Position numbers and translations under genes: made by a program. From a virus: 64,000 nt of DNA. The notes below the pieces were generated by a model, which was given only the letters and a program-made list of their open reading frames with translations, ran no database searches and had not been told where the DNA came from. The stretch is from the UHGV virus genome UHGV-2031204; one strand, written 5' to 3'. Below, in pieces: positions 28,814 through 45,714 of this stretch (its first letter is position 1; the number at the start of each line of letters is the position of its first letter).

Positions 28814-31800
28814 TTAAGATGTAAACATAAGATTGAACTGGAGCTTATCGATATCGCGCGTTTGTGCTGGGTTAACCGCGTCGTACGTGGTTGCCACGTA
28901 AACCGTTAATGTCCCGTCAGCAAACGAGGTTTTCACCGGTGGTGTAGTCCCTGTTTGTCCGTCGGTTACAATGACAACAGGTTGAGCTGGAAGTTGATGG
29001 AACTGACCCTTAACCGCTTTGTACACCAAACCAGATTGCGCTGCTAACTCCGTGTCGGTATACACGATAAACGGTGTGTCGATATCTGTCTGTTTAATGA
29101 CAGTGTTCGTCTCAACGTCAATCAGCTGAACAGCACCGAACTTCATACGGTAGCTATCGTATTCATTTTTTGGAATGACAAACGTAGCATGTACACGGAC
29201 TTCTTCGGCGGGTTTAAATCCGGCGTGTTCTTTTTCCAGATAGCTGTTAGCAGTTAACGTTACTGTCTGTTCAGTCATCGTACCACCAGACTGGTTTAAC
29301 CCGTAACGAACTTGGGTTATACCTGTCGGAGCCGCAAGCCTGATTTTTAGTCTACGGTTAGCGGTGCCGGGATTACCAGGCACTCTAACACGCAGGCTCA
29401 AAGCCAGATATGCATTCGTACCGGTAGTCGGTTTCGTATACGCACCCAACCACTTCATATTCGCGGTTGCCGCTTGACTGTTCTCAGAAGCAGTAGCCGC
29501 TACAACGTTTGCAGCGACCGCTTTCTGCCAGAACTGGTCAGCGCAGTTCTCATACGCTACTCTACCGATACTTTTATAACCTGCATAGGTTTCCTGTATC
29601 GGCAGCTTGGGGCGTGTTGTGATCCCGCTCAACGCATTCCATCTCTGACCATCGACATACCCCGCACCATTGCTCGCGGATGCCGTGGGGGCTTTCAGCG
29701 GTTGGTTAACCAAGGTTTGGAGTGGACCCGTTTTTCGATCGTACGCCGCTGCAACGTCGTGCTGATCTCTAACAGCAGCGTGTTCTTCTAATTCACGAAC
29801 CCTGCCTAACCGTTTCACTTTATCGATGTTAATAGCAACTATACGCTTTTTATCGGTTGTAACTGTACCAACAAATAATCGCGAACTCGTATCCGGCAGC
29901 TTTTCCAGACCGATCTGATATTGAGCTTTCGAACCTACAAGAGCAGCATGAACATAGAACGTCTGGTTAGCATGGTTTTCTGGGAATTCGTTGCTTAAAT
30001 CCACCGACCACGTCGGTAATGTATAGCTATTACTACCGAAATCTAACCTGACCTCTTCCGTCAAGTATAGAATCCAACCTTCCGCGGTTTCCACGCCTGC
30101 GATAATAACTGCCTGCCCCGCTGTTGAGAATGTGGTATCATTAACGAACTCTTCGACTGTGTATGCGTTACCTGAACAGAAAACGCGGTCAGCTTTAGAG
30201 AAAATTCGTGCCATCTTGTCCCAATTACCCGCACCCATGTAACAACCAGATTCTGGGTTGTGGGCAGGAGCCATCTGACGCAACTGTGACTTACCGGGAA
30301 CTCGCGTCCAACCCGACCCAGGGTTAAAGGTATACTTCGCAGCGTAACCCAAAGCATTTAGGTCCCCGATATTCCGTATTGTCAGCGTATAAGGCAGCCA
30401 TAGACCGAAGTTTACACCGTCGGCAGAAGCAAAAATTGGCTGGCCTACACGTCGCGTTTTATTACCCGCTTCTTCCCTCAGAGACTGATAACTTAAGCCG
30501 TAATCAAGGTCTAAGAACCAATCAACGAGTTTGAAAGTAGCCGAGTTAAAACGTAGATAACCATTTTCTTTAGTCGGACTTACCATGAAGTAATAGATGT
30601 CGAGGACCCGACGTCCGTTACTCAAGATTTTCATGCATGAAACTTGTAATAAGTCGAACTCACAAACGGTGTTAATACCTAACATCCAAAGAGCAAACAA
30701 TGCATTGCCGCTTTGGTGTGCTGCACTGATGCGCTCGTTCGCGTAACCATTTGCCTGACCAGATGGTGCGCCATCGACAATCATCCTAATCATCTTCTGG
30801 CGATCCGCTTCCTCTAACGTCAGCCGTTCTGATGACAGGGCAAAGTTACCGTAGATGTTTCGATATGGGAAGGTTTCCGCTTTCGTCAAATACCAACCGT
30901 TTAACTGACCGTGACGCTCCTCTGGAGTCATACATGCAGCCATACAGCTTAACTGTTCGTAAAGCGTCGGATCAACTTCTCGGCGGTTGTTGTTCGGACC
31001 ATAGCCGCTATATCCGGGAACGTCATAAGGTTTACTTGGGTCAACTTCTACTTCGATCGTATAACGGTTACGTGGATTGGATAGCCATACTTTGTTTGAG
31101 CCACCGATACCAACAGGATGAGAAAGACCGATGGTATAGATAGAACCACGACCTTTATCCCAAGTAAATGTTGCTTCGCCTGAGGTATTGTTTGGGTTAT
31201 CGTAACGCAGATAATCAAAAAACTCTTTGCCTTGCGTACTTTTAATAGTAACGTTCGGCATCTGGTCCGCATCGTTAATCTGCCAGCAGGAAAGCATCAT
31301 CCCTGAGACATTAGGTTTAGCATACATCGCAAAACAACGATTGTTTGCCTGTCCACCGCCCCACTTACGACTGGTTTCTACAGTTGAGCCATCCGCGAAC
31401 GATAGTCTGGTAGCATCAACCTTAATGGGGAAACGTTCGGCACCCTCTAACGTAACTCTGCCCGTTAACGTATCGATTGTGAAACTTGTTGACCATTGAC
31501 GGAAATTAATCGTCGTACCGTCGGCAGCCGCAAACCACACGCTGGGCACATGATTCACACGAATCACGCTGTCGCGTACCGCACAAGCATGGTTACATTC
31601 TGGACCGTGAACAAAGTTGTGACCGATTGTCCATTTAGCCCGTGCCTCTGGCGGGTAATACGTAAAGAACTGACCAGTCTGCGACTCTTCGGTCTTCTGA
31701 CCAATTCGTAAACAGAGGTTATCTCCGAATTGCCCCATTTCTCCGGTTAGGGTTACACGTTCAAATTCTAACTCAGTATTAGCAGACAAGTCGGCTTTAC

Positions 31801-33997
31801 GTAAACGCCATGCCGCCACGGCATAAGCAGCGTTATTTACCGTGGAGCGAAGAAGATAAACGTGGTCGTCAACTAACACAACATCGTCAGCTTCTGGCCA
31901 AGGATTCCAGGTTTGTTCCACAGTACCGCTGGGGTTGCCATTACGGTATTTAGGCATTGTAACACGACATACCACCATGTGTTTACTGTGGTCCATTGAA
32001 CCATTGAACAACACCAAATAACGGTTATTGTCAGAACCCAGACAAATAATCGCTTCCTGACCACCGATCAATATAGCTTTTAAGGTCACTCCAGGATATT
32101 TACTCATCCCAACAGGATGGTATTTCACCGAAGTTTGCTGAGGGTTCACAAACACATTCGACGTATTGATATCAGCATAACCGTAGTAAATCGCCTCTGT
32201 ACCAGGTACACCATTAGAAGCATTACGTAACGAATAAACTTTACCTTGTTGGAATCCTACGACACCTTTCTGATAAGACTGATTCTTTGTAAAACCTGAA
32301 TAATTACCGAGTGCCGGGATGGGTAAGAAGTTTTTGTTACCGAACTTCGCCCCACCGACAGTCCACGCAGGTAAGATGGTATTCAGTTTATCGGAAACCT
32401 TCTTGATCTCTTTTGCGAACAACCACCCTTGACGCGACGTGACAGCTTTGTCGTTCGTGGCATCAATCGCATCCCACAGCTGTAAAATACCATCTACAGT
32501 CGCACTACCAATCGGGACATTATCCAAATCGGCGGTAGTGTGCGTGTGCTCCTTCACACTTTTATTTTTCAGCACGTTCGCTAACGCTTTTGTTACCGGT
32601 TTAGCGATCGGCATGGTGTTATCCATCTTATCGATACCGAAATCGGTTTTCGTTAAGGTTAACACCATTTTATCGCCCGTCTTAACAAACCCTTTACCGT
32701 TAACCGTGTAGTCATCGTCAACGTACAAGTCTAACCGGTCTTTTAATTCGGTCACCGCCTTTTGGGAAATAGCAGTGCCTAGTGCTACGGAGGTTGCGAT
32801 ATTCGTAATCGAAAACACCCCATAAACCGACTCGGTTGCTGTGGGAATATTCGCGTTCAACGTTAGCGGGTTAGACTGCTTCGCTGTACCGTATGGTTTT
32901 ACGGTGTCTGATGGTTTGAAATAGGCATTTGCTTCAAGTAACGTTACAGACGTCAGGTACATGTTCACCATTTCTGGTGTAACCAAATACACGGAGTTGT
33001 AAACCGGGGCTAATACATCTTGTTCTGTCCCAGAGTGTACCCAAAGCGTATTCAGGCCCGCACTAAATTCAACCGCCAAACCCGATTCGTTGTTGTCCTG
33101 GTCCGCTTTAATCACTAACGGTTGTGGTGAGGTAATTAACCACTTATCACCACGGATACTGATAATGTGCCCGCCTGCGGTTTTAAACGTCAGTTCGTTA
33201 CCATTCGTGCTCCCCCATCGACCGTAAACAGTACCGAGGGCTTCACCCATTAACTGATCGACGTCTGACTGCTCAATGCCCGCCGAACCCATCAGCGTAG
33301 CCAATTCGTCAATCGTCAGTCCAAACGCTTTTGTCGCGTCAACAGCACGTCCTAAGACTGGAAGGGCACCAACGTCAGTGGTCGTATACTGGTGTGCGTT
33401 AGGATTAAGGTGGTGTTGGTATAACCCCTCGTCGAAAACCTTTTTACCGTTCTCGTAAATCAGGTTAGTGACTTCGGTAAACGCTGCATCTAACTCTGTT
33501 GAACGTTGAACGATTTTCTTACGGATGTCGTTTAACGCTTTAACAACCTCATCCCTCAGAATAGCTTCTTCTAAGTTAGCAGGAGGATCGATGGGTTGAA
33601 TAACTGGCGCATACGCCATTAACTCTGACCAGTCCACGTTACGTGGGTCTTTCAGGTCAGTACGAACTAAGAACTTTCCGATTTCAGATTGTGGTACACG
33701 ATACTGGCGTGCTACCCCTAAAATCTCATATTCGATTTCTGTTGCGGTCAGCAACATGAACCCGCCGTAGATCTGATCTTGCTCAGCTTCTGCGAGTTCT
33801 TTAAAGTAATAGCCTAAATAGTAGTCCAACCCCTCAATCAGAGTACGACGTCCGTTAGGCGCGGTATCGTCGGCTACTGTGAGTTTTAATCCGATACGAT
33901 AAAAAGGTCCTTCAGGCGGAATGACCACATTAAATCGGTTAGGGTACGTCGCTGTGCTTAACGTACCGTTAAACTGCGCCGCGTCTTCTCTCGGCAT
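28814..33997 (-). CDS. Giant fibre-like structural protein (1727 aa)
   Basis: N-terminal VVIPPEGPFYRIGLKL…GLDYYLGYY shared-anchor motif. Confidence 0.7.
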   Translation of the reverse strand: MPREDAAQFNGTLSTATYPNRFNVVIPPEGPFYRIGLKLTVADDTAPNGRRTLIEGLDYYLGYYFKELAEAEQDQIYGGFMLLTATEIEYEILGVARQYRVPQSEIGKFLVRTDLKDPRNVDWSELMAYAPVIQPIDPPANLEEAILRDEVVKALNDIRKKIVQRSTELDAAFTEVTNLIYENGKKVFDEGLYQHHLNPNAHQYTTTDVGALPVLGRAVDATKAFGLTIDELATLMGSAGIEQSDVDQLMGEALGTVYGRWGSTNGNELTFKTAGGHIISIRGDKWLITSPQPLVIKADQDNNESGLAVEFSAGLNTLWVHSGTEQDVLAPVYNSVYLVTPEMVNMYLTSVTLLEANAYFKPSDTVKPYGTAKQSNPLTLNANIPTATESVYGVFSITNIATSVALGTAISQKAVTELKDRLDLYVDDDYTVNGKGFVKTGDKMVLTLTKTDFGIDKMDNTMPIAKPVTKALANVLKNKSVKEHTHTTADLDNVPIGSATVDGILQLWDAIDATNDKAVTSRQGWLFAKEIKKVSDKLNTILPAWTVGGAKFGNKNFLPIPALGNYSGFTKNQSYQKGVVGFQQGKVYSLRNASNGVPGTEAIYYGYADINTSNVFVNPQQTSVKYHPVGMSKYPGVTLKAILIGGQEAIICLGSDNNRYLVLFNGSMDHSKHMVVCRVTMPKYRNGNPSGTVEQTWNPWPEADDVVLVDDHVYLLRSTVNNAAYAVAAWRLRKADLSANTELEFERVTLTGEMGQFGDNLCLRIGQKTEESQTGQFFTYYPPEARAKWTIGHNFVHGPECNHACAVRDSVIRVNHVPSVWFAAADGTTINFRQWSTSFTIDTLTGRVTLEGAERFPIKVDATRLSFADGSTVETSRKWGGGQANNRCFAMYAKPNVSGMMLSCWQINDADQMPNVTIKSTQGKEFFDYLRYDNPNNTSGEATFTWDKGRGSIYTIGLSHPVGIGGSNKVWLSNPRNRYTIEVEVDPSKPYDVPGYSGYGPNNNRREVDPTLYEQLSCMAACMTPEERHGQLNGWYLTKAETFPYRNIYGNFALSSERLTLEEADRQKMIRMIVDGAPSGQANGYANERISAAHQSGNALFALWMLGINTVCEFDLLQVSCMKILSNGRRVLDIYYFMVSPTKENGYLRFNSATFKLVDWFLDLDYGLSYQSLREEAGNKTRRVGQPIFASADGVNFGLWLPYTLTIRNIGDLNALGYAAKYTFNPGSGWTRVPGKSQLRQMAPAHNPESGCYMGAGNWDKMARIFSKADRVFCSGNAYTVEEFVNDTTFSTAGQAVIIAGVETAEGWILYLTEEVRLDFGSNSYTLPTWSVDLSNEFPENHANQTFYVHAALVGSKAQYQIGLEKLPDTSSRLFVGTVTTDKKRIVAINIDKVKRLGRVRELEEHAAVRDQHDVAAAYDRKTGPLQTLVNQPLKAPTASASNGAGYVDGQRWNALSGITTRPKLPIQETYAGYKSIGRVAYENCADQFWQKAVAANVVAATASENSQAATANMKWLGAYTKPTTGTNAYLALSLRVRVPGNPGTANRRLKIRLAAPTGITQVRYGLNQSGGTMTEQTVTLTANSYLEKEHAGFKPAEEVRVHATFVIPKNEYDSYRMKFGAVQLIDVETNTVIKQTDIDTPFIVYTDTELAAQSGLVYKAVKGQFHQLPAQPVVIVTDGQTGTTPPVKTSFADGTLTVYVATTYDAVNPAQTRDIDKLQFNLMFTS

Positions 33998-34091
33998 CGT
34001 AAAGACTCCTACTTTTAAATAAAATGGATACCCCTCCCCATTACAGGGAGGGGTTACCTACGGACACACAACTGCCCGCAGGCAGCCTGTC

Positions 34092-37000
34092 CTAAGTACG
34101 ATCCCCTAACTGCTTCCCGTTAAGTTCTCGTTTCAGTACAGCCAAAATCCACTTCCACGCTTTACTCGTGATGTGGTACGGATTGCGTTTCTCCATTAAG
34201 AACTGACTTTCGCCGCTACGGAGTTCGAAGCTCTGCGCATTGAGTTGGTCTTGACGAACACCGTTCTCGTCAGTGACATCTAACGAACAGGTAAAGTTAA
34301 GCTCGTAGCCTTCAGGATTATTACCCGGTGGTTCTAAGACAATATAAATGTCCTGCCCTACACGTTGGTCCTTTGGCGTAAGGGTAACTGCTTTACCTGT
34401 GTCCGCGTTGGTCGAAAGCGCAAACGGTACGCTATCGATAGCTGATACATACGCGTCCTTCCCAGCATCACCGATAATCACCTTACCCGGCCAGTTACAC
34501 TTCACCGTTCCTGTCACTTTTGCAACACGGTACTGCTGTTTATCAGCACCTTGTGCAAAGCGTAAAATGAGTTTATGCCGATACCGGTTTGCGGCAACTT
34601 TGGATGTACTCCACTCATTGTTCCAGGAGGCATGAAGTTCACCTTTCTTGGCCATCAAAGCACCACGAGACAGCTTACGTGGGAAGAATTGTGCCGGAAG
34701 TTGCCCTTCGTGGGAAATCGCTACACTCCCTTGTCCGGTTGGAAGTGCTATTGTTTCCGTAGGGCAATAATTTAACTCGTACACGTGTGTTGTAGGATCG
34801 ATCAATTTCTGATAGTAATCACCGTCCTTACTGTCCGCTAACCAACCAACGGAAGAATCCGTATACGATTCAAACAGTGAACGTAAATAGTGATACTTAT
34901 CGATATCGATGTTGCCCGTTTTTGGATCGATCAGTGCATGGTTAATAGTGAGGAAACACTTCTCACTCAAACCATTAAACGCCAGCCCCACACCGTCACC
35001 GGTAAAATAGTCTACCAGGTCAAATGGAAGCGTCATTTCTATTTGTCGCAGGTTGATAGTCGTTGAACCAAACTGCGAAAAAGATAGCGCTAAACGAAGT
35101 ACACGAGTATTAACATTATAACGATAACGAATCATCCCACGCGGCGCATGGTTCGCGGAGATCTTATCACCGTTTGCACCCCACCCAATTAAATCGAGTA
35201 TTTCGGCGTTTGCTACTTCACCATTAAACAAAACGTCTTTAGTCGTGACTTCAACTGACGTTTCCCTTCCGGCATCCATCAACATCGAACCGTTATTCAA
35301 CTCGAAGCTCTTGTGCCAAACTTCAGAAGTCGAACCAGCACCTACACCCACCTTACAAGTTTTACTAGTAAGGTTAATACGCACATAACGGCGTCCCACT
35401 GTACCGCCCTGCGAGCTTGCACACAAAATAAGATCAGGTGCCGCAGACAGTGCCTTGGTCCCTCCAATGTCATCAACATCGAAAACGAATGAACCTTCGA
35501 ACGTTGGTGCGTTATTTTCCTTCGGGTTAAATGGCGTAAACCAACAATAAGGCGTCGCGCCCTCGGTTGAGAAAATCAACTCTAAGTCAGATTTAACATT
35601 TAATCCGTGGGAATAAGAAAAAAGACCGCGACTTAAGGTACAGAGCGTTCCACCGCTTCCGCTACCTAACGTTTTTCGATATATTAAAGCGCGGGGTTCT
35701 GGGATAGCACGGTTTAATAACGGCAACCGTGGGTTATCCGTTAACGCCCAGTCTACAGAACTGAGTCCGTGCGCTTTGCGTGTGTCAATATGTTCACTAA
35801 CCTCGGTACTTTTCCCGAAATCAAACGTGGTTTCAAAACTCACGGTTTTATTCGAGTAAGATTCACCGGCAACAATATCAACGTAGCCAATATATCCGCG
35901 CTCAGGGTCAACTGCAATACTCTGAATTGGCTCAGTACGCGAATACAGAGAGCCTGTGAGCATGTTAACGTACAGATAATGACGAATGCCTACGTGTGTT
36001 GTAACGAACTCTTGGAGAAGCTCTACGTGCGTTTCAGGACCACTGAAATAAACGGGGTAGTCACCGTCGTAAATTTCGAATTGCACCGCTGCGGATTTAG
36101 CCGTGTCGCTACACTCAGCTTTAACCGCTACGGTGTAGTTTTCAACGTCTGCTGATGTTTCATACACTGCAACAAGCGGAGACTGGCCTGTGGCTGCCTG
36201 GATACCGTTAATGTAAACTGTAACCGGGCCACCCCCTGCGGCATAAACCCAAAGCTTCGGCTGGCGTGCTCTTACCCGCGTTTTTGCCAACACAGTAACA
36301 ACTGACTGGTCACCCATCTGTGAGGCAGTTTTACCTACCGGAACAGATTGGAAACCCATTAGTGGTGGTTCTTCAATACCTGTCCAGCTAATGCCCTTAC
36401 CAGCACTCACTTTCCCCGTAGGCCAAGTCGTCTCAATTTGGTTGTTCGGTGAGAACCAGTTAAACATCGGTGTAGTTTGCAGGTCAATCGAACCTGTAAC
36501 GGCGCTATCAGCTTTCGCGCCGTTCAGCAAATAGAAATATTTCAAATCTTGAACGGAGATTGCCGTACCCTGGCTATTAAAGCGCCAGTCTGCGCCTTTT
36601 ACCGCAGCGAAATCCGTTACCGACCCTTCTTTCGCGTTTGCAATCGCCGCAGCAACCACATCTAAACGCGCCGAAAGTTCTTTTAAAATGTTCGGCACCA
36701 CTGCACGGTTTTCAACCAAACCGTTCTGGTTAGTTGCGTAACGACCGATACCGTAAACGGATTGCGAGGCTTTATAAATGCCTAGTTCCGACCAATCGTG
36801 GTGGTGGCCTGCATCCGCTAAGCCGCTAAGTGCCGCATTTAACTCGGTAGACAACGGCTTGTCAACGTCTGCGGTGTTATCCGCTTGCCCTAACCCCAGA
36901 TCAGCTTTCGTGATTGTCCTGGAGCCGTCGTTCATCGGCTTACCGTTAATCATGGTCGTTTTAGCCACATACCCCGATAGGTCGGTCGAGTATGGTGCTA

Positions 37001-38297
37001 ACGAAGCCGGAGTTGCAGCAACCCCAGTCGTTTCTGTACCTTTACCTGTTTTAAGTTTAGCGACGCCTTTTTCGGCGGTTGTCGCTTTTGTTGGGTCGAT
37101 AGTCCCCACGATAGGGTCGGCGCGAGAACCTTTACCGGTAAAGCTAATCCCATTACGGCCTTCAATGTACACCTTCGAGTCATCAGGGTCGCCACCGCCA
37201 CCAGAACCCGCATCTGGATCTTGTTGGTATTCCATCAATGTCGTGGTAGTCAGTAACGGGTTACCGTTCAGGGTGAGTTTGTTCATCCCTAAAGCATCGC
37301 CTGTTGACTCGATGCGTAATGTGTTTTTACCGGCACGCCAATTAATGTAACGTCCTGCACCTGTGCCTTCCAGATGTCCTACCGCTAATACCACAGAACC
37401 GTTGGATTTTAACGTAAAACCATCGTTGGCAAAAATGATTTCTGACTCACCGTTTTTCGAACGGAACTGTGCGCGGTTTCCTGACACCGTACAGTTAAAC
37501 ACGCCCCGTACTTCCGAAGAAATCCAGTGAGAGATATACGTGTCGATAACCGACTGCGGTAAACGAAACGCTTTCAGCTCATCCGTCAGTGCTTTCAACT
37601 TTAACCCGTACGCCATAAAGGTGTCGGGGGTTTTCAAGTTAACAGGATGCGCGTTAATCTGCGCGGATGTGGTTTCGTGCGGGTTCTTCGCTGCGATGTG
37701 TGCCGGGTAGTTAAATGCTTCGATTTCTTTACCCAACGCAGTCACTAACGCTTTAACTTCAGCTAATTTGTCTTTAATTAACTGGTTAGCGTCGTCGGTT
37801 TTCAATTCAATATCGTGAACTGCCGACGCTAAATATTTTTTGTTCAGCAAATCCGCCCAGGACGTTGCTGCTGGCGTCGCTGGATATAACGATGGTCTAC
37901 CGTCTAATAACAACCAGTCAGCACTGACTGGGTTATTCAAATATTTCACCAGTTCATCAAGAATATCAACGAACGGGTCGTAGAACGTACCACCGAGCAT
38001 TTGTCCTTCAAAGGTTACGATGCCTTTGATGGATGGGTTGATAAGGTGTACCCCACAATACACGTTGGCTGCTACCGAGTCATCCAGTTCCGTCAGCTGA
38101 TATTGCAGTTCGTAGTCCACCCCACGACTCAGTGGGGTGGTTGAACCTGGTTGTCTGACGACCAAATCTTCAAAGAACGGGCGGTGGTCTAAAATCACCA
38201 CCCGATCGTTGTTGTTCTCTGACCCGATGATACGCTCCTCTAAGAAGTGATTCTCGGCTTTCGTCCCCCGAGGATCGTAAGGATACGCTTTCATCAA
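34092..38297 (-). CDS. Giant fibre-like structural protein (1401 aa)
   Basis: N-terminal VVILDHRPFFEDLVVRQ…GVDYELQYQ anchor motif; hairpin at 34012-34040 between this gene and the next. Confidence 0.7.
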   Translation of the reverse strand: MMKAYPYDPRGTKAENHFLEERIIGSENNNDRVVILDHRPFFEDLVVRQPGSTTPLSRGVDYELQYQLTELDDSVAANVYCGVHLINPSIKGIVTFEGQMLGGTFYDPFVDILDELVKYLNNPVSADWLLLDGRPSLYPATPAATSWADLLNKKYLASAVHDIELKTDDANQLIKDKLAEVKALVTALGKEIEAFNYPAHIAAKNPHETTSAQINAHPVNLKTPDTFMAYGLKLKALTDELKAFRLPQSVIDTYISHWISSEVRGVFNCTVSGNRAQFRSKNGESEIIFANDGFTLKSNGSVVLAVGHLEGTGAGRYINWRAGKNTLRIESTGDALGMNKLTLNGNPLLTTTTLMEYQQDPDAGSGGGGDPDDSKVYIEGRNGISFTGKGSRADPIVGTIDPTKATTAEKGVAKLKTGKGTETTGVAATPASLAPYSTDLSGYVAKTTMINGKPMNDGSRTITKADLGLGQADNTADVDKPLSTELNAALSGLADAGHHHDWSELGIYKASQSVYGIGRYATNQNGLVENRAVVPNILKELSARLDVVAAAIANAKEGSVTDFAAVKGADWRFNSQGTAISVQDLKYFYLLNGAKADSAVTGSIDLQTTPMFNWFSPNNQIETTWPTGKVSAGKGISWTGIEEPPLMGFQSVPVGKTASQMGDQSVVTVLAKTRVRARQPKLWVYAAGGGPVTVYINGIQAATGQSPLVAVYETSADVENYTVAVKAECSDTAKSAAVQFEIYDGDYPVYFSGPETHVELLQEFVTTHVGIRHYLYVNMLTGSLYSRTEPIQSIAVDPERGYIGYVDIVAGESYSNKTVSFETTFDFGKSTEVSEHIDTRKAHGLSSVDWALTDNPRLPLLNRAIPEPRALIYRKTLGSGSGGTLCTLSRGLFSYSHGLNVKSDLELIFSTEGATPYCWFTPFNPKENNAPTFEGSFVFDVDDIGGTKALSAAPDLILCASSQGGTVGRRYVRINLTSKTCKVGVGAGSTSEVWHKSFELNNGSMLMDAGRETSVEVTTKDVLFNGEVANAEILDLIGWGANGDKISANHAPRGMIRYRYNVNTRVLRLALSFSQFGSTTINLRQIEMTLPFDLVDYFTGDGVGLAFNGLSEKCFLTINHALIDPKTGNIDIDKYHYLRSLFESYTDSSVGWLADSKDGDYYQKLIDPTTHVYELNYCPTETIALPTGQGSVAISHEGQLPAQFFPRKLSRGALMAKKGELHASWNNEWSTSKVAANRYRHKLILRFAQGADKQQYRVAKVTGTVKCNWPGKVIIGDAGKDAYVSAIDSVPFALSTNADTGKAVTLTPKDQRVGQDIYIVLEPPGNNPEGYELNFTCSLDVTDENGVRQDQLNAQSFELRSGESQFLMEKRNPYHITSKAWKWILAVLKRELNGKQLGDRT

Positions 38298-38307
38298 AAA
38301 AATCTCC

Positions 38308-41300
38308 TTAATCGCGAATGATTACCGCCTGCACTTTATTGTTGGTGTCGATAAACGACATTACGCGCTCCTTGTTAAGATAAGGAGGTATCGGTAACGC
38401 AGCGTAATCCGCCAGGTTGTTATTAAATTCAGTTGCCACTAACGCATTAAGCGTTTCGGGGTCTGAACTGACACCGGTCAAATCCATAACGCGCACACGA
38501 TTTAATGAGGAATAGTTGCTAATATAGTCTAACAACGTACCATAGACTTTATTCGCGGTTGCGCTATCTGCCGTAGAACGGATGTTGGCACGAACCTCAT
38601 CCTCATAAAGTCCCCCTAAACCGTAGTAAATAGGGGTATACGGATCGTTAACGATAGGTGCGATATTGAACCCTGTTAAACGGTCAGTTAGAGGGATTTT
38701 CTGCGTAGCTCCCCCTGCTGCCGTGCAGCTTACGTATTTATCTGTCGCAGATAAAAACACCACGATGGTATACGTAGTGCCCGCTAAGGTCAATGTTGCG
38801 TTAAACGTTATTGCGTTATTTGCAGCACGGGTGTGGGTAAACGTTACGTCAGGTTGTAACGTATTCCACGGCGCAGGCGTAACACGCTTCGTTGGTGTGA
38901 AACCTAACACTACCGATTTCCCGCTACCGAAGTTCAAACCGAACCCTGCGTAACAATATTCACCGTTGCTGTCAGTTAAACGATAACCACGAGTGATAAG
39001 TAACGACAACCGCATAAACTCGCCGTCGGTGTTTTTCCAACAACCTAAAACAGTTTCTAACACCGTGCCAGTTTTTGCGTTGCTTTCTGTTTCCCAACTT
39101 ACCCGCATTCCTGCGTTCTTAAAAGCTGGGAACGTGTTGTGGATAAACCCGTGTAGGTTATCGCTTACTCCTTTCGCGTCAAAAATCCACTTGGATGCAA
39201 GCTGGTCGTATTTCACCCCGTCTAAAGCTTTATACTGCCCCCCGGCAACATAACGCCAATCTGCTTCACCGCGTACTACTGCCTGGAGTCCAGAAGCCCA
39301 GCAAGGCGCGCCTACCGTTAAGTTAGCTAACCCAAGCGCTGCACGTGACGCGGTGCGTTGAATGTGTGCGTTGTCATCGGCCTTATGATCTTTCAGTTCA
39401 CGGAAATCACCCAACCGTGTGACATTACGCATCTCCGTAACGAACACCTCAGAAATGTCGTTAACACCAATCAACCCTACACGCGTCATGGTATCCGTTT
39501 CAGCCTGACTGTAGCTGTCGTGGACAATATACTTCGCTTTGTTGTCAACAATATCAACAAAAATCCCTGCGTAGATTTCTGTATTCAATTTCGGAAAACG
39601 TTCACTGACGTTAATCGTCATCAACGGAACGTCGTATGTTTCACCACCGATAAAATACGTTGAAGCTGGAAGCGTGACCAGAATTTTGTCTTTGACCGTA
39701 AGGTCTATTAAGTCGTTACCAGACTCACCAAAACGTATAATGTCAAGACGTGCCTCCGAGTCAACACCGCTGACAGCGCGCTCCAATTTTTCAATCTGAG
39801 AAGTCTGCGCCATTACCACACTCCCATCGAGTGCTAAAGTCGCATCATCCACATCCAGACCAAATTTAATCAGACCACGTTTCGCGGTGGTTGCGTTTCC
39901 AGTACCAAAAGCGGTAAACGGGTGTTGGTGAACTTTAGGCGAGTATTTATCTAACTCCGCACGTTGTGCTGTAGAAATCGGTAAATCGACATCGGGCGTA
40001 TTCGCAACATTACCTAAACCAAAGGTAATCTTATCGATAGTAACCGAGCTGGTAAGTTGCATGTCGTTAATGTACGATTTAACTGCAACTAACTTACCGG
40101 TGAACTCCGCATCGAGTTTTTCAATCAGTGCTGGCGTTGCTGCAAGGTTTTCAGCGGTACCGAACTCATCGGTCAACTGCCAAGCTGCCAGAGTTGTTGT
40201 ATCGGTCGCGGTAGGAAGAATAAAGGTCGCTACGAACGGCGAGGCTTTTATCCCGCTACCGGTGATCGTAACCGTTGTTGTCGAGTTTGCGTAGAATAAA
40301 CCTGTACCACCTGCGGTATTGCCTGGCAGATACGGGGCTACGGTGGTGGGGTCTAAGAGTTTTTTACCACGCCACAACAATCCTCGGTCATCGGGGTATA
40401 GCACAAGCTGGTTAGTACCTGCTTGGAACGTTACGGGGTTGTTACCCACGTTAACATCAGTTGAACCTTGGCCAATAAACTTAATGGATTTCGGATCAAC
40501 AACAAACTGAGCGCCTAAACGTGTCTCGTCAACAACATCCGGTGCTTTCTTAATGGTAACCGTGTTACCTTTGTTTTGCGAACTAATGGTAACGGCGTCG
40601 GCAACATTATTGATCAGCGATTTAAAGTGGTGCTGATTCTCTAATGCTTCTAACGCAGCGTCCATGTTATTGAAGTTGATCCGACCGCTATACGTTTTAC
40701 TGTTTACGGTAATAACGACGTCAAACACATTCCCTGTACGCTTCAGTTGAAAACGTAGCGTAAAATCCCCATCCGGTATTGCCGGGTTAGGAGCTTGTGA
40801 AATATACCGAACTGCCGGTACCGGACTACCGTAACCGTGCAACGCCAGTTCGATAGTAAGAGTACCGGACCAGACTTCACCGGTAATCTCTACGTACTTA
40901 CCGGAGTTACTACCAGGATTTTCGTAGAAACGTAAACCAACCCTACCGACCGCTTCATTACCAGACGCTGTTTTACGTCCAGTAACAATAAAGTCAATAT
41001 CTTGCAGGTTGGCAGGCACCGCATTAAAGTTAGCACTGAAACCGCTTTTCGCTCCTGTATAACGAAGCGCACCGTGATATCTGTGACCACTACTAACATA
41101 GCTTTCGCTAAAATAAGGACTCACGTATTTCGACATCGAGACCGGATCAACTTCCGTCGTGAACGAAGTAAAACCCGGAAGTGTGGTAATCGTGCCGTTA
41201 ACGTTCTTGCTCGCCGATTCACGAAGCAGTTTTTTCTGTGCGGTTAACGTTGCTTGTGTTGGGTACTTAGCATTAACGTAATCCGTTAACTGCTGTTTCG

Positions 41301-42630
41301 TTTTCCCGTAAGCTAACGCGGCATCCGACGCAATACCATTCAGCTCTAACGCACGGATCGGACCCCACGTATCGGTGTGCGGGTTGTCCTTACGTGTAAC
41401 GTGTTCGTGTGCAGGCGCGTTACGATACAGCTGCTCAACTAACTGATGGTATTTAACTATTAACTGGTAAACATCGTTATCGACGTCAGGTTCTGGTGCG
41501 CCGGGTAAAGAACGAATTTGAATATAATCATTTTCGGCCGCATACCAGTTTAGATTAATGTTCGTTTTAAACTTCAACCATTTAGCAACATCCGTTTTCG
41601 AATACCCTGCCGAGAACTCATCAGGCGGCGTATCGACGTTGAATGTGTAATCCATGGTCTGTTTATTTGTTTTTACTACGATGACGTAAACACCGTTTCC
41701 GGGTTGACGGGTTACACTAAAATCGATATCGTTTTTTAACTCATCGTCAGTTAAACCGTTGATTAACGTATAATCGTAGTTTGTTGAACCGCTACCAATA
41801 GCGACCGTTAAGACCAGTGAGATTTTGCGCTGTTTTAGCTGCAGCCGTAGAATACTTGCACCGCCGTTAGCATAACAGAGCATCCAATCGATCTGTTCGT
41901 TTGGATTCAATTTCGTCATGTCTGGCAGAATAGCAGGAATTCTGTGTTTCACTGACAGGACGTAGTCGTTAAAGGTTGCAGTTTTATAACTCAAGCTATA
42001 ACGATGACGGGTAGTGTTGTAGGTGAAGCCACCTTTATTGTCGTATACGGCATACTGCTCGGAAGTGATAACCTTGCTATTAGCACGGTATTCCAAATCC
42101 AGGGTATTGCGTGCGATGGGGTTAAGCCGACTCACGACTTCCCCTAACGAATCGCCTAATCCAGCAATAGCCTGCATTAATTCCAGTTCACCTTTCCAAT
42201 TCTCCCAATCGAACTGGATATCAACCGGCGGAAAGTAAACGTCCCCGATGACGGTGTCCCACTGACACGCAGACGGGTATTTATCTTTATTGAGTTCGCG
42301 TTCTGCGGTAATCTGTTGTTGGGTAGCCTGACCGCAACCAACGGCGTGGTAATCTACCGTAAAATTCGATTTGTATTTGTCATTAACAATCCAAATCATC
42401 CCGTGAATGAGATAGGCTGTGCGCAACATACCGGTCTCGTACGGGTGTGTAATAATGTAATCGTCGCCTAAGGTCAGTGTTTTGCCGCCGCTCTTGACCA
42501 CCAGGGATGTGGTGAAAAAAGGGGCGTGGGCAGGTACCAACATTCGGTATTTCGTACCAATGACGGCGACCGCTTCACCGGTTATTTTATTCCCCGGTTT
42601 TTTGAAGTGTGGGTCTAAGACGACAGCCAT
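38308..42630 (-). CDS. Giant fibre-like structural protein (1440 aa)
   Basis: N-terminal MLVPAHAPFFTTSLVVK…GDDYIITHPYE anchor motif; first gene of the minus-strand operon. Confidence 0.7.
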   Translation of the reverse strand: MAVVLDPHFKKPGNKITGEAVAVIGTKYRMLVPAHAPFFTTSLVVKSGGKTLTLGDDYIITHPYETGMLRTAYLIHGMIWIVNDKYKSNFTVDYHAVGCGQATQQQITAERELNKDKYPSACQWDTVIGDVYFPPVDIQFDWENWKGELELMQAIAGLGDSLGEVVSRLNPIARNTLDLEYRANSKVITSEQYAVYDNKGGFTYNTTRHRYSLSYKTATFNDYVLSVKHRIPAILPDMTKLNPNEQIDWMLCYANGGASILRLQLKQRKISLVLTVAIGSGSTNYDYTLINGLTDDELKNDIDFSVTRQPGNGVYVIVVKTNKQTMDYTFNVDTPPDEFSAGYSKTDVAKWLKFKTNINLNWYAAENDYIQIRSLPGAPEPDVDNDVYQLIVKYHQLVEQLYRNAPAHEHVTRKDNPHTDTWGPIRALELNGIASDAALAYGKTKQQLTDYVNAKYPTQATLTAQKKLLRESASKNVNGTITTLPGFTSFTTEVDPVSMSKYVSPYFSESYVSSGHRYHGALRYTGAKSGFSANFNAVPANLQDIDFIVTGRKTASGNEAVGRVGLRFYENPGSNSGKYVEITGEVWSGTLTIELALHGYGSPVPAVRYISQAPNPAIPDGDFTLRFQLKRTGNVFDVVITVNSKTYSGRINFNNMDAALEALENQHHFKSLINNVADAVTISSQNKGNTVTIKKAPDVVDETRLGAQFVVDPKSIKFIGQGSTDVNVGNNPVTFQAGTNQLVLYPDDRGLLWRGKKLLDPTTVAPYLPGNTAGGTGLFYANSTTTVTITGSGIKASPFVATFILPTATDTTTLAAWQLTDEFGTAENLAATPALIEKLDAEFTGKLVAVKSYINDMQLTSSVTIDKITFGLGNVANTPDVDLPISTAQRAELDKYSPKVHQHPFTAFGTGNATTAKRGLIKFGLDVDDATLALDGSVVMAQTSQIEKLERAVSGVDSEARLDIIRFGESGNDLIDLTVKDKILVTLPASTYFIGGETYDVPLMTINVSERFPKLNTEIYAGIFVDIVDNKAKYIVHDSYSQAETDTMTRVGLIGVNDISEVFVTEMRNVTRLGDFRELKDHKADDNAHIQRTASRAALGLANLTVGAPCWASGLQAVVRGEADWRYVAGGQYKALDGVKYDQLASKWIFDAKGVSDNLHGFIHNTFPAFKNAGMRVSWETESNAKTGTVLETVLGCWKNTDGEFMRLSLLITRGYRLTDSNGEYCYAGFGLNFGSGKSVVLGFTPTKRVTPAPWNTLQPDVTFTHTRAANNAITFNATLTLAGTTYTIVVFLSATDKYVSCTAAGGATQKIPLTDRLTGFNIAPIVNDPYTPIYYGLGGLYEDEVRANIRSTADSATANKVYGTLLDYISNYSSLNRVRVMDLTGVSSDPETLNALVATEFNNNLADYAALPIPPYLNKERVMSFIDTNNKVQAVIIRD

Positions 42631-42698: not shown

Positions 42699-43961
42699 GT
42701 GACTACTGCTTATCAAGTGCGGCCCGACAGCGCTTTTGGCTTCTCTCGAGAGTCCCGTACCTGGGGAGCCATCGATGTCACGCAACCCTTAAATACGTTG
42801 TGTTCAGACTACCACACCTTTGAGATCGGTTTAAGTGCACTTGGTAAAGACTATACGTTAGTCAGCCAATACCATCTTGCCGAACTACAAAACCGAACAG
42901 ACACTTTACAAGATTGGTTAAATGAAAAAGCCGGAAACGTCATCCCCACTCTAAAAGCCGGATTGCCGAAACTGGAATTCAGTTGGGCGCATTACCAATC
43001 AATTAATGCCGATGTACCTGTCGAAACGTACCTGTGTCCGCCGGGGTACCACCACAGTCAAGATTTCAGCTTAGACGATGCTGATGACGTTGTCGTCGTT
43101 TGTGAGGACAAGTGGAAGGACAAATACCGTAATAGTGTACTGTACAACATTAACGGTCAATGGGTACCGCATCAGACAGATACCGTAGGTGTCCGATTAC
43201 CCGGGGCCGGTAAAATCGTACGGAGAGCCTGTACGCCTGATATCGGCTGTATGGTTTTTGGTCAGTTAGGGAATGTTAAAACTTACCCCATTGCCAACCT
43301 TACCCTAAACAAGCTCGACACTACACGTGACTATTACTCCACGTTAATGATTTCGCTGCCCGAATCTATTACGGGAAAAACGGTGGGTTTCGTCATCGGT
43401 GGACTGTTACGTTGGTTGCCTCCGGGCGGTTATTTCTCCGACCGTGCGATCATGATTTCTTTGCCGAATTTTGATCTTGCTCGGACCGTTCTAGAAACCC
43501 GTCGCTATTACGACTGGGATGCCATCGGTGTGGGGGATTTATCAACGCCTACTAATGTCCAACGCATTCGCAACCCCGAAACATTAAAGGCGCTTTTACT
43601 CCACGAGTCTTCGTTTATCTTTACGGTAGATAACCCGTATTTAGAAGAAGAGGTTGTGGGTGTATCGCATAACGCAGTTTGGGGACGTTGTTATCTCAAG
43701 GACCCTAGCGATCCTGATTCTGAAAAACCATTAGGGTACTTAAATAATCGCTTCGGGAAGACGGTGGGCTATTGGCCTACATGGGAGGAGGGTGAGTGGG
43801 TATTTAACACCACCGAATTCGACAGTCAAAACTACGTCTTTCGTGAAGCCCGGTGGTATAATCAGAAGAAGATTAACGACGCGCAAGCAATCGTCGGTCC
43901 ATTCGGTCCCTGGGAAAAAGTGTATTTAGAAATGCATCGCTTTAGAGCACGAAAAAAATAA
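42699..43961 (+). CDS. Hypothetical 420-aa protein
   Basis: GTG start; isolated plus-strand gene between minus-strand blocks. Confidence 0.5.
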   Translation: MTTAYQVRPDSAFGFSRESRTWGAIDVTQPLNTLCSDYHTFEIGLSALGKDYTLVSQYHLAELQNRTDTLQDWLNEKAGNVIPTLKAGLPKLEFSWAHYQSINADVPVETYLCPPGYHHSQDFSLDDADDVVVVCEDKWKDKYRNSVLYNINGQWVPHQTDTVGVRLPGAGKIVRRACTPDIGCMVFGQLGNVKTYPIANLTLNKLDTTRDYYSTLMISLPESITGKTVGFVIGGLLRWLPPGGYFSDRAIMISLPNFDLARTVLETRRYYDWDAIGVGDLSTPTNVQRIRNPETLKALLLHESSFIFTVDNPYLEEEVVGVSHNAVWGRCYLKDPSDPDSEKPLGYLNNRFGKTVGYWPTWEEGEWVFNTTEFDSQNYVFREARWYNQKKINDAQAIVGPFGPWEKVYLEMHRFRARKK

Positions 43962-43966
43962 AGTAA

Positions 43967-44009
43967 CCTCCTACCCTCTAAGAGGGTAGGAGTAGCACGT
44001 TTTTTTTTC
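43967..44009. terminator. Bidirectional terminator
   Basis: CTCCTACCCTC-TAAG-AGGGTAGGAG flanked by A-run and T9 run. Confidence 0.7.
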
Positions 44010-44011
44010 GC

Positions 44012-44221
44012 TTAGTCTTTTTTGTAGACAATTGCGTTACCGTGCAGTTTGTTGTTGCCGGAAATACCGATAACTTTGAATGCGTCGCCGCCAATTTTTT
44101 CAGCTTCAGCAGCCAGCTTACCCGTTACATGATCAACGGTGTCGCCGAAAGCGCTAACGTTACCGATTTTCTTAAACTCTTCTGGAATATGCTCAGCAGA
44201 AGAGAACTCTTTAATAGACAT
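44012..44221 (-). CDS. DUF1471 (YhcN/BhsA-family)-like small protein without signal peptide
   Basis: …IGNVSAFGDTVDHVTGKLAAEAEKIGGDAFKVIGISGNNKLHGNAIVYKKD; ATG 44221 after RBS GGAGAG. Confidence 0.55.
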   Translation of the reverse strand: MSIKEFSSAEHIPEEFKKIGNVSAFGDTVDHVTGKLAAEAEKIGGDAFKVIGISGNNKLHGNAIVYKKD

Positions 44222-44427
44222 AACAGCTCTCCATTTCAAAAGGAAGGTGGTCTAAGACCGACGTGTGTTACAACCGAAGCATAAGATAGCTCCTCCCCGT
44301 AGGGAGGAGTAGAGTGCGCGAAAAAAGTGGCCTGCTTAACTAAACGATGGGTTTAAGAAAAGTGTTGATAAAAAGCTTTACCAACGTCAGGTCACAATAT
44401 ATAAACACAACGTAAGAAAAAGGGGAA

Positions 44428-45393
44428 TTATTGCGGAGGTGATGTCGGACCATGTTTACCTTGGTGAATGTGAACGCTAAAGGTAATACCGGAAATAATG
44501 GCATCTTTAACCGTAAAGACACCCACGCCTTCACCCGTACCACCGTATTTGAAGTTCTTAGCGACTTCCAGATTACCGGTGAACATCGCTTCCTTCCCTT
44601 CTTGTTTAAAGTTCGGCGTTTTGAACGTTGTCGAACTGCCCGCTTCTGTTAACCAGGTTTGTGTTTTAAACGTAACGGAATTCGCTGCTTCCGTATTGCG
44701 GACTTCACATTTTTCATTAATCGTTTTCGTTTCCAGGTTAATAGAACGCTTTGAATAAATGAACGCATCTTCTTTGTTGATGTTCACTTTTGAAAGCATC
44801 GCATTCTCAAACCCGAGATCATCTTCAACCGAGTTAATGTAATACTTGTTTCCTTTATGGTCAACGCACTGCCACGTACCGTTTGCATTATCAAACTGAA
44901 ACAACCACGCCGCTTTCTCGCCATTCACCATACTCGTTCTTAGCGTGATATGTTTGTCAATCGTCGAAACGTTCAACACATACGCATTGGACAAGTCATC
45001 CGCCATTTGGTTTTCAGGGTCAGCCGACCACGCATAAACCGCATCTTCTAATCGCTTAACGTTAGCGAAGTTCAGATCAATCCAAAAATAAATATCGGTT
45101 TTCCCCAAACGTAACAAGATAACGTAGTCTTCTCGTTTAACGTCAGGGGAATTAATTCGGTTGGAGTTAAACTTCCACCACTTTGCTGTTATCGTGTTAC
45201 CCGTCTTAATGGTTAGGTTATCTGTTGCACCAGACGTTTCATGCGTCTTTTCAGTTGCTGAAGAAACAGATTGTACCACGGTAGGGTTAGCAAAGTTAGT
45301 TTCAATTGGTATCACTTTTACCCGATCTGTACCACGGGGTTTGTCTTCCGCGACGATACCAATTGAGAAAAAATCAACACTGGATTTCTCCAT
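44428..45393 (-). CDS. Putative central tail spike (P2 gpV-like) with C-terminal HxH apex
   Basis: C-terminus …ITFSVHIHQGKHGPTSPPQ resembles the His-rich apex of P2 gpV (…LHTHKHPGDSGGTTGSPL). Confidence 0.5.
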   Translation of the reverse strand: MEKSSVDFFSIGIVAEDKPRGTDRVKVIPIETNFANPTVVQSVSSATEKTHETSGATDNLTIKTGNTITAKWWKFNSNRINSPDVKREDYVILLRLGKTDIYFWIDLNFANVKRLEDAVYAWSADPENQMADDLSNAYVLNVSTIDKHITLRTSMVNGEKAAWLFQFDNANGTWQCVDHKGNKYYINSVEDDLGFENAMLSKVNINKEDAFIYSKRSINLETKTINEKCEVRNTEAANSVTFKTQTWLTEAGSSTTFKTPNFKQEGKEAMFTGNLEVAKNFKYGGTGEGVGVFTVKDAIISGITFSVHIHQGKHGPTSPPQ

Positions 45394-45417
45394 CGGGACG
45401 TTCCTTAGATCGGAATT

Positions 45418-45473
45418 GATTTCAGATATATTTTACTTAAGTGAATAGGGACTGAAGTACCAGTTCAGTCCCT
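45418..45473 (+). promoter_or_regulatory. Conserved promoter-like motif plus hairpin (copy 3 of 4)
   Basis: GATTTCAGATATATTTTACTTAAGTGAA then hairpin GGGACTGAA-GTACCA-GTTCAGTCCC. Confidence 0.45.
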
Positions 45474-45714
45474 ACGGACACGTTACCCTTTTAGTACCTT
45501 TCGTTAAAGGTTACTAAAAAATTACATTATGTCCCTTTATTCTGCTACTCGGGATACCGGTAGGGGATAGGGGGCATTATGTATACGGATATAAATAGCG
45601 GAGGTATACGGAGTATACCGACATACTCTTCCCAGAGGAACGTAGTGACTTCCTTATACCTCTTTTACAATCCATAATAATAGCCTTCCCTTCATTGGGA
45701 TTAGCGAGTAAATC

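Follow-up and report, generated by a model that had tools for sequence, protein, structure and literature searches.

A signal-less DUF1471 protein encoded among the tail genes of a clade of enterobacterial jumbo phages

Introduction

Enterobacteria make DUF1471 proteins in abundance, as factors of stress, biofilm formation, and virulence. The family is restricted to Enterobacteriaceae and is tied to the stress response and to biofilm formation; one host DUF1471 domain, SrfN, binds sulfated polysaccharides (PMC4092069). Characterized members are made with a Sec signal peptide and are periplasmic or secreted. A 64,000-nucleotide stretch of viral DNA (UHGV-2031204), referred to here as the window, encodes a protein that appears to belong to this family and to have no such signal. 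The locus therefore raises two questions: how a jumbo phage came to carry this domain, and where the domain could act without a leader. In a jumbo phage that carries many accessory genes of host origin, a signal-less DUF1471 is not unexpected. Nevertheless, a jumbo clade in which one is kept under purifying selection and traded between lineages amounts to an experiment of nature on the binding of the domain by itself. A defined partner of the phage protein, if there is one, whether on the particle, in the cytoplasm, or at the cell surface, could reveal the function of the host family, and it would also settle the standing of the smallest reported 'virion protein' of phage SPN3US.

The window encodes one complete mature DUF1471 domain

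The gene and its surroundings are listed in Table 1. The product of the frame, which runs from ATG to TAA, is MSIKEFSSAEHIPEEFKKIGNVSAFGDTVDHVTGKLAAEAEKIGGDAFKVIGISGNNKLHGNAIVYKKD, with a pI of 6.3 and no cysteines. The GC content of the gene (42.9%) shows no compositional anomaly relative to the window (44.7%), and a tblastn search of the 64-kb window found no second DUF1471 copy. The open reading frame is a real gene and the ortholog of SPN3US gp172.

Table 1. Features of the DUF1471 locus in the window (minus-strand features are also given in reading direction where useful).
Feature	Coordinates	Strand	Remarks
CDS including stop codon, leaderless single-domain DUF1471 protein, 69 aa, 7.4 kDa	44012..44221	-	SPN3US gp172 ortholog, phrog_8068
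Shine-Dalgarno GGAGAG	44227..44232 (44232-44227)	-	5 nt 5' of the DUF1471 ATG
In-frame TAG closing the DUF1471 frame upstream	44252..44254	-	N-terminal extension of at most 6 residues
Baseplate assembly protein, 321 aa, upstream neighbor	44428..45393	-	phrog_3216; SPN3US gp173 homolog
Tail/virion protein, 420 aa, convergent neighbor	42699..43961	+	phrog_3337; SPN3US gp171 homolog, also in distant phiKZ-like phages
Virion structural protein, 1440 aa	38308..42630	-	phrog_7557; at SPN3US gp170 position, baseplate/tail-fiber candidate
GC-rich hairpin CTCCTCCCTACGGGGAGGAG, between baseplate gene and DUF1471 gene	44290..44309 (44309-44290)	-	
11-bp GC-rich hairpin, T-runs on both strands	43968..43992	.	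between the two convergent genes
Block GCCACTTTTTTCGC	44318..44331	-	about 110-160 nt 5' of the DUF1471 start

The original prediction, made from the sequence alone, was that this gene encodes a DUF1471 domain that has the C-terminal signature of the family and lacks an export signal, and it proposed a profile HMM search as a check. That search bears out the family assignment. Profile PF07338 (YdgH_BhsA-like; YdgH/BhsA/McbA-like, formerly DUF1471) aligns to the window protein through positions 2-55 of its 55, and with 38.2 bits and an E-value of 1.4e-9 the match clears the 27-bit gathering threshold. The C-terminal signature is likewise present, as the motif G-x-N-N-K-x-H-G-x-A-I-x-Y-K that the window protein has in common with host DUF1471 proteins. 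When the profile of the phage family is used as the query, the solved Salmonella YahO structure 2MA4 is matched at E=3.6e-11.

The predicted fold agrees with this assignment. The AlphaFold2 model of the window protein (pLDDT 87.7) has the order short strand-strand-helix-strand-strand, which is the alpha+beta fold of the solved YahO, SrfN, YdgH-I, and YdgH-III domains. Its best PDB matches in Foldseek are solved DUF1471 domains (TM 0.57-0.74), namely the N- and C-terminal domains of YdgH (2m2j and 4evu), SrfN (2ma8 and 2jna), and YahO; TMq is 0.60-0.74 for the top matches 2m2j, 4evu, 2ma8, 2jna, and 2noc, and RcsF and dodecin/DUF74 folds rank behind them. The DUF1471 match of the window protein is far beyond chance.

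RcsF deserves separate comment, since a published remark names it as the closest structural likeness of DUF1471 (PMC4092069). RcsF is an outer-membrane lipoprotein and the sensor of the Rcs envelope-stress relay, and the fold modeled for the window protein resembles its small alpha+beta fold (2y1b, TMq 0.85). However, RcsF has a lipobox and disulfide cysteines, whereas the window protein has no cysteine at all, and the two are 12% identical in the structural alignment. We rejected the window protein as a member of the RcsF family: it is cysteine-free, it has no sequence similarity to RcsF, and the likeness is one of fold alone.

We also compared the window protein with the NCBIfam equivalog models of the named host paralogs. 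It does not reach the cut-off of BhsA (NF047859; 46.8 versus 90), YbiJ (33.8 versus 110), YahO (24.9 versus 90), McbA (22.9 versus 110), or YhcN (18.8 versus 125). Given that all of these cut-offs are missed by far, the window protein is orthologous to no named host paralog, and 'BhsA' is too specific a label for the phage copies that bear it in GenBank. The BhsA model aligns through positions 30-85 of 85 only, its mature part, to window residues 13-67, and the alignment of YahO to the phage family begins at YahO residue 29 of 91. Thus, the phage protein corresponds to one complete mature domain from which the leader has been removed.

The export signal is missing throughout the phage family

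The window protein has its fold and C-terminal motif in common with the host DUF1471 proteins (BhsA/YcfR, YbiJ, YahO, McbA, YhcN, SrfN, and the YdgH domains), but the host proteins have a Sec signal and are routed to the periplasm, and the phage-encoded protein has neither. We judged the presence of a signal peptide by hydropathy and by the limits of the reading frame. A signal peptide is ruled out because an in-frame TAG lies 11 codons 5' of the ATG; the sole alternative start is a TTG at 44239, which would add MKWRAV to the protein. The N-terminus is acidic, and the maximum 10-residue Kyte-Doolittle mean within the first 35 residues is 0.40, as compared with 2.06-2.64 in six bacterial homologs (P0019, P0023-P0027), whose N-termini resemble classical signal sequences on inspection. 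A plasmid-borne E. coli DUF1471 homolog that has a leader starts MKSTVLILSALLSLFSINSAFSA. A lipobox is absent since the window protein has no cysteine. The predicted lack of a signal peptide is therefore confirmed, and no start that could supply a leader is present.

The same is found in the relatives. At 13 of 13 orthologous loci the gene has the identical ATG start behind a GGAG or GAGG box, with no upstream start able to add a leader at any of the 13, and the start position is common to all 18 aligned members of the phage family. Judging from these N-termini, the whole phage DUF1471 family is leaderless, and the bacterial and plasmid homologs retain a classical leader. An exhaustive HMMER search of 1.84 billion representatives gave 12 matches at E<=1e-3, too few for a survey of leaderless bacterial copies, because the query is short. 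The six bacterial homologs compared above came from this search. Another of its matches, P0021, was discarded as spurious: it is a 1883-aa archaeal FN3 protein in which the Pfam scan finds no PF07338.

The gene belongs to a conserved family of one jumbo phage clade

The window protein matches phrog_8068 over residues 1-69 of 69 (E=4.5e-32), and no other PHROGs family is matched. A tblastn search of 50,697 phage records found the gene in at least 60, at that sensitivity solely in this jumbo clade. All 60 records that carry it are of jumbo phages, with sizes of 224-251 kb except for one of 197 kb, and the hosts named in all 60 are Salmonella, Escherichia, Erwinia, Cronobacter, or Proteus. The carriers include SPN3US, SPAsTU, phiEaH2, Asesino, Machina, Wellington, and CR5, and they belong to Seoulvirus, Erskinevirus, Machinavirus, Wellingtonvirus, Derbicusvirus, and related phages. 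The family proteins are about 67-73 aa long, and several GenBank/RefSeq phage records already describe them as 'DUF1471 domain-containing protein' or 'putative BhsA'. Hence the view of this copy as a singular oddity has to be given up: it adds one more protein to phrog_8068, a phage family that is conserved, catalogued, and already annotated in several phage records, and is not a new system.

The window protein is 45% identical to SPN3US gp172 and 72-80% identical to its counterparts in SPAsTU, Asesino, and phiEaH2. It resembles SPN3US gp172 (phrog_8068) in length, in its leaderless N-terminus, and in position, but is of a different sequence type (A versus B, described below). We read the gene order in SPAsTU, SPN3US, Asesino, Wellington, CR5, Caitlin, Machina, metagenomic contigs, and two 222-kb episomes. 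In every locus the baseplate gene is separated by 185-410 nt of spacer from the DUF1471 gene, after which come a convergent gene of 420 aa and a giant virion gene; the SPN3US equivalents, in that order, are gp173, gp172 (SPN3US_0172 / YP_009153466.1), gp171, and gp170. At the SPN3US gp168-170 position the window has three successive giant open reading frames of 1727, 1401, and 1440 aa (28814-42630, minus strand). SPN3US gp168-170 are a paralog family and baseplate/tail-fiber candidates, and the third of the window frames was assigned to phrog_7557 by the PHROGs scan.

A megablast search of positions 43000-45500 against the phage collection gave no match; the phage is thus new at the DNA level, and its relatives in the collection are visible by protein only. 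The closest DUF1471 copies lie in two 222-kb 'plasmids' (87% identity in nucleotides and 92% in amino acids) and in a metagenome contig (99% in amino acids). The two 'plasmids' are p98232-contig_4 of E. coli 98232 (L016; NZ_CP173450.1, 221,873 bp, circular) and 'plasmid unnamed1' of Enterobacter ludwigii 51A:C (L017; NZ_CP134650.1, 222,441 bp, circular). Both have the window-like baseplate/DUF1471/tail layout, and they encode one identical DUF1471 protein, WP_079772428.1. The Enterobacter element is the nearest DNA relative, being 85% identical to the window over 66% of positions 30000-54000 (24 kb). Both elements look like jumbo-phage genomes deposited as plasmids, whether from a carrier state, pseudolysogeny, or a co-sequenced phage.

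The gene is an insertion under purifying selection that has apparently been exchanged

The gp171-like neighbor is more widely spread than the DUF1471 gene. It occurs in 100 records, which include Goslar, 201phi2-1, and jumbo phages of Vibrio, Xanthomonas, and Klebsiella. The DUF1471 gene is absent from the Vibrio relative and from the more distant coliphage Goslar. In both genomes, those of Goslar and of Vibrio phage pVp-JHP1101, a virion structural gene at the gp173 position directly faces the convergent gp171-like gene, and the gap between them holds neither a small gene nor a DUF1471-like open reading frame. Given that this junction is empty in both phages, the DUF1471 gene is an insertion in the terminator spacer. 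The insertion is confined to the SPN3US-like jumbo clade on Enterobacterales, the order to which DUF1471 is limited (PMC4092069), and the phage gene is in all likelihood host-derived. The original prediction had spoken of a hijacked host domain that acts in the cytoplasm. The host origin stands at that strength; cytoplasmic action had been deduced from the missing leader alone, and it does not follow from it, since a particle-associated protein would equally lack a leader.

The gene is bracketed by hairpins (44309-44290 upstream and 43992-43968 downstream) and has a long private 5' spacer. Like phage morons, it is inserted at a junction that stands empty in relatives, is flanked by hairpins, and has apparently been exchanged as a unit. 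Classical morons, however, are prophage genes with host-type promoters in lysogens, whereas the window comes from a virulent-type jumbo phage and the gene has no sigma-70-like promoter that we could find.

Within a sequence type dN/dS is 0.07-0.26, which points to purifying selection on the phage gene; between types dS is often saturated. The copies in the window, SPAsTU, Asesino, Machina, and phiEaH2 are of type A (..KKIGNV..VYK), and those of SPN3US and Caitlin are of type B. SPAsTU and SPN3US are 43% identical in the DUF1471 protein versus 85% in the gp171-like and 73% in the gp173-like protein, and Machina and Caitlin are 46% identical versus 72% and 80%. The reverse holds for SPN3US and Caitlin (78% in DUF1471 versus 63% and 61%) and for SPAsTU and Machina (84% versus 61% and 65%). 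Since the distribution of the types contradicts the flanking genes, the cassette appears to have been swapped by recombination between co-infecting jumbo phages, and its exchange between phage lineages as a unit would be the simplest reading. We had considered that Machina and Caitlin might differ by the cassette alone, but rejected this because their DNA is about 69% identical overall; the case for exchange therefore rests on the matrix of discordant identities, not on a sharp recombination breakpoint. In a neighbor-joining tree the phage copies at the syntenic position fall together, with bootstrap values below 50, and a single acquisition of the gene is likely on this evidence. As far as can be told, family-wide leaderlessness, clade-specific insertion between tail genes, and flank-independent exchange of two types go beyond what the database labels say.

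Elements in the flanking spacers

Behind the upstream hairpin CTCCTCCCTACGGGGAGGAG the T-run is degraded in the window, whereas the equivalent hairpin of the relatives has a T-run behind it and is terminator-like. The downstream hairpin lies between convergent genes and is therefore read as a shared bidirectional terminator that serves the DUF1471 gene on the minus strand and the 420-aa gene on the plus strand. A match to the Rfam PyrG leader at 43956-44029 (minus strand) was rejected as sub-threshold (23.9 bits versus a gathering cut-off of 65, E=0.77); this match on the downstream hairpin is almost certainly a chance similarity to a hairpin and T-run.

The block GCCACTTTTTTCGC contains a 12-nt core, GCCACTTTTTTC, whose sequence does not vary among the window, SPAsTU, SPN3US, Asesino, and Wellington although the spacer around it has diverged (L001 3843-3854, L002 3872-3883, L003 3847-3858, and L005 2861-2872 in the loci of the relatives); the Caitlin copy differs by one base. 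The conserved block of the relatives is followed by the terminator-like hairpin and a TAnTATGC block. GCCACTTTTTTCGC occurs only once in the 64 kb of the window and is therefore no promoter motif of general use. No sigma-70-like promoter site was found for the DUF1471 gene. The candidate promoter motif TAnTATGC of the relatives shows no enrichment in the window, with 2 matches against 6.5 expected. Folding of the 5' spacer gives nothing out of the ordinary (z=-1.9). In the metagenomic locus whose protein is 99% identical (L010 3817-4000; ENA ERZ28577814 scaffold_1030), some 20 nt of the 5' spacer are missing relative to window 44222-44427, among them a small hairpin, GGTCTTAGACC, directly 5' of the Shine-Dalgarno sequence, and the conserved T-run is one T shorter. 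Thus, both elements are dispensable.

Mass spectrometry of the SPN3US ortholog

Published data on SPN3US bear on whether the protein is made and where it is found. Of the 86 virion proteins that Ali et al. (2017, PMC5694885) detected in CsCl-purified virions, gp172 is the smallest; in the wild type its 4 unique peptides and 6 spectra cover 81% of the protein. Its spectra per kDa (SC/M) amount to 0.86, as compared with 0.93 for the 12-copy portal, and terminase and DNA polymerase were undetected in the same preparation. It carries no head-protein flag, it is the one protein missing from 47(am1) particles, and according to the authors its status needs more work (PMC5694885).

Reilly et al. (2020, PMC7411985) label gp172 'Tail' in their Table S2, in which the peptide-spectrum matches (PSM) for gp172 vary with the preparation. 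There are 6 in the wild-type preparation, 3 in am59-supD, 2 in tail-less heads, and 0 in the doubly purified tailed phage am59-supF and in the lower CsCl step band am59-sup0-SB. Three purified preparations of tails and proheads gave 0 each, with gp170, gp171, and gp173 abundant. The highest count, 13, comes from a crude differential-centrifugation pellet, rich in debris, envelope, and flagella, where gp172 reaches 1.86 PSM per kDa versus 0.13-0.19 for gp171/gp170, or 10-15 times as much. A caveat on the gp172 counts, given by their source paper, is that the low-mass gel region was lost. These uneven counts indicate that gp172 is certainly made, abundant in lysates, and carried along with particles after mild purification, and that it is probably not a firmly bound baseplate subunit.

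Where the phage protein might act

The reading that we tentatively prefer is that of a late-made accessory protein, loosely associated with the particle, that acts outside the cell that produces it. The DUF1471 protein would be made in the cytoplasm late in infection, along with the products of the surrounding tail genes, and would need no leader because it would not be a periplasmic actor of the infected cell. A peripheral and weak association with assembled particles, on the tail side, could carry it to the exterior of the next host cell, where the robust cysteine-free domain may bind an envelope or polysaccharide component, as SrfN does with sulfated polysaccharides. It would then be an accessory protein and not a load-bearing part of the baseplate. 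The late timing, the peripheral association, and the binding of an envelope or polysaccharide component are inferred. A precedent exists in extracellular Ig-like domains, which are reused without a leader on phage particles. The conserved position of the gene between gp173-like baseplate and gp171-like tail genes, in all loci read, and the recovery of gp172 from CsCl-purified virions favor a role on the particle. Conversely, the zero counts in the more stringently purified preparations make the association with particles shaky, and the window protein has no obvious anchoring module. A tight fit to tail proteins is also disfavored, because the DUF1471 types are distributed differently from the tail genes on either side. 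To our knowledge, the only binding partners known for DUF1471 domains are the sulfated sugars bound by SrfN. Our literature search found neither a discussion of DUF1471/BhsA in SPN3US, jumbo, or Erwinia phages nor a cryo-EM study that resolves the SPN3US baseplate.

The main alternative, somewhat less probable and in line with the original prediction, is a soluble, non-structural effector that would stay in the cytoplasm of the infected cell and there bind a host or phage factor, or titrate it; the virion signal would then be carry-over of a small protein that is present in abundance. Such an effector would have no leader, and it would suit the moron-like layout (hairpins on either side, an extended 5' spacer, and no such gene at the junction in related phages), the exchange of the cassette independently of the flanking tail genes, and a gp172 signal that drops with stringent purification and peaks in the crude, debris-rich sample. 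Yet the fold has no known cytoplasmic partner or activity, its relatives being proteins of the periplasm or outer membrane or secreted ones; the gene lies within the tail module; and gp172 reached 81% coverage in CsCl-purified virions without terminase or DNA polymerase. The position of the gene, next to three candidate fiber or baseplate genes encoding 1400-1730 aa and to a baseplate assembly gene, together with the low and variable amounts of gp172 in particle preparations, could instead suggest an assembly helper, that is, a transient chaperone or adaptor for the giant baseplate/tail-fiber proteins (the gp168-171 homologs) that is mostly shed. We regard this as unlikely: related phages with homologous tail genes assemble without the DUF1471 gene, the types do not co-vary with the neighbor genes, and a chaperone role for the DUF1471 fold is not known.

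Host BhsA alters aggregation and surface properties, and a phage DUF1471 freed at lysis might act on neighboring cells or the biofilm matrix as a public good that aids the spread of progeny. The ties of the host family to the stress response and biofilm (PMC4092069), the abundance of gp172 in a crude lysate pellet with envelope debris and flagella, and the cysteine-free domain of the window protein are in keeping with this, but the argument is purely inferential and an externally added periplasmic domain must cross or act on the outer membrane, so that we consider it improbable. We are slightly more skeptical still of a particle-borne protein that would enter the next host's periplasm at tail penetration or ejection, where it would mimic host DUF1471 or RcsF-like proteins and blunt or redirect the envelope-stress response, such as Rcs-driven capsule induction; if that were true, the two exchangeable sequence types would be adaptations to different host targets. 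Finally, the part of the gene needed for canonical localization is absent, as it would be in a decaying, functionless remnant of a captured host gene that had lost its 5' end. Against this stand a start and Shine-Dalgarno sequence conserved in 13 loci, the presence of the gene in at least 60 genomes, a dN/dS down to 0.07, and the peptides seen for the ortholog gp172; conservation and peptides essentially exclude a dead remnant.

Further leaderless copies

A leaderless DUF1471 of the CR5 type (P0028 cluster, 68 aa) is found under many 'Salmonella enterica' accessions, on 110 contigs of which the longest is about 225 kb. CR5-like jumbo genomes are therefore apparently common passengers in Salmonella isolate assemblies. 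Erwinia phage Wellington has a tandem second DUF1471, gp189 (L005 3287-3847), which is recorded as a hypothetical protein. In it, a leaderless N-terminal DUF1471 domain is fused to an acidic tail, about 120 aa long, which seems to be of low complexity and is probably disordered.
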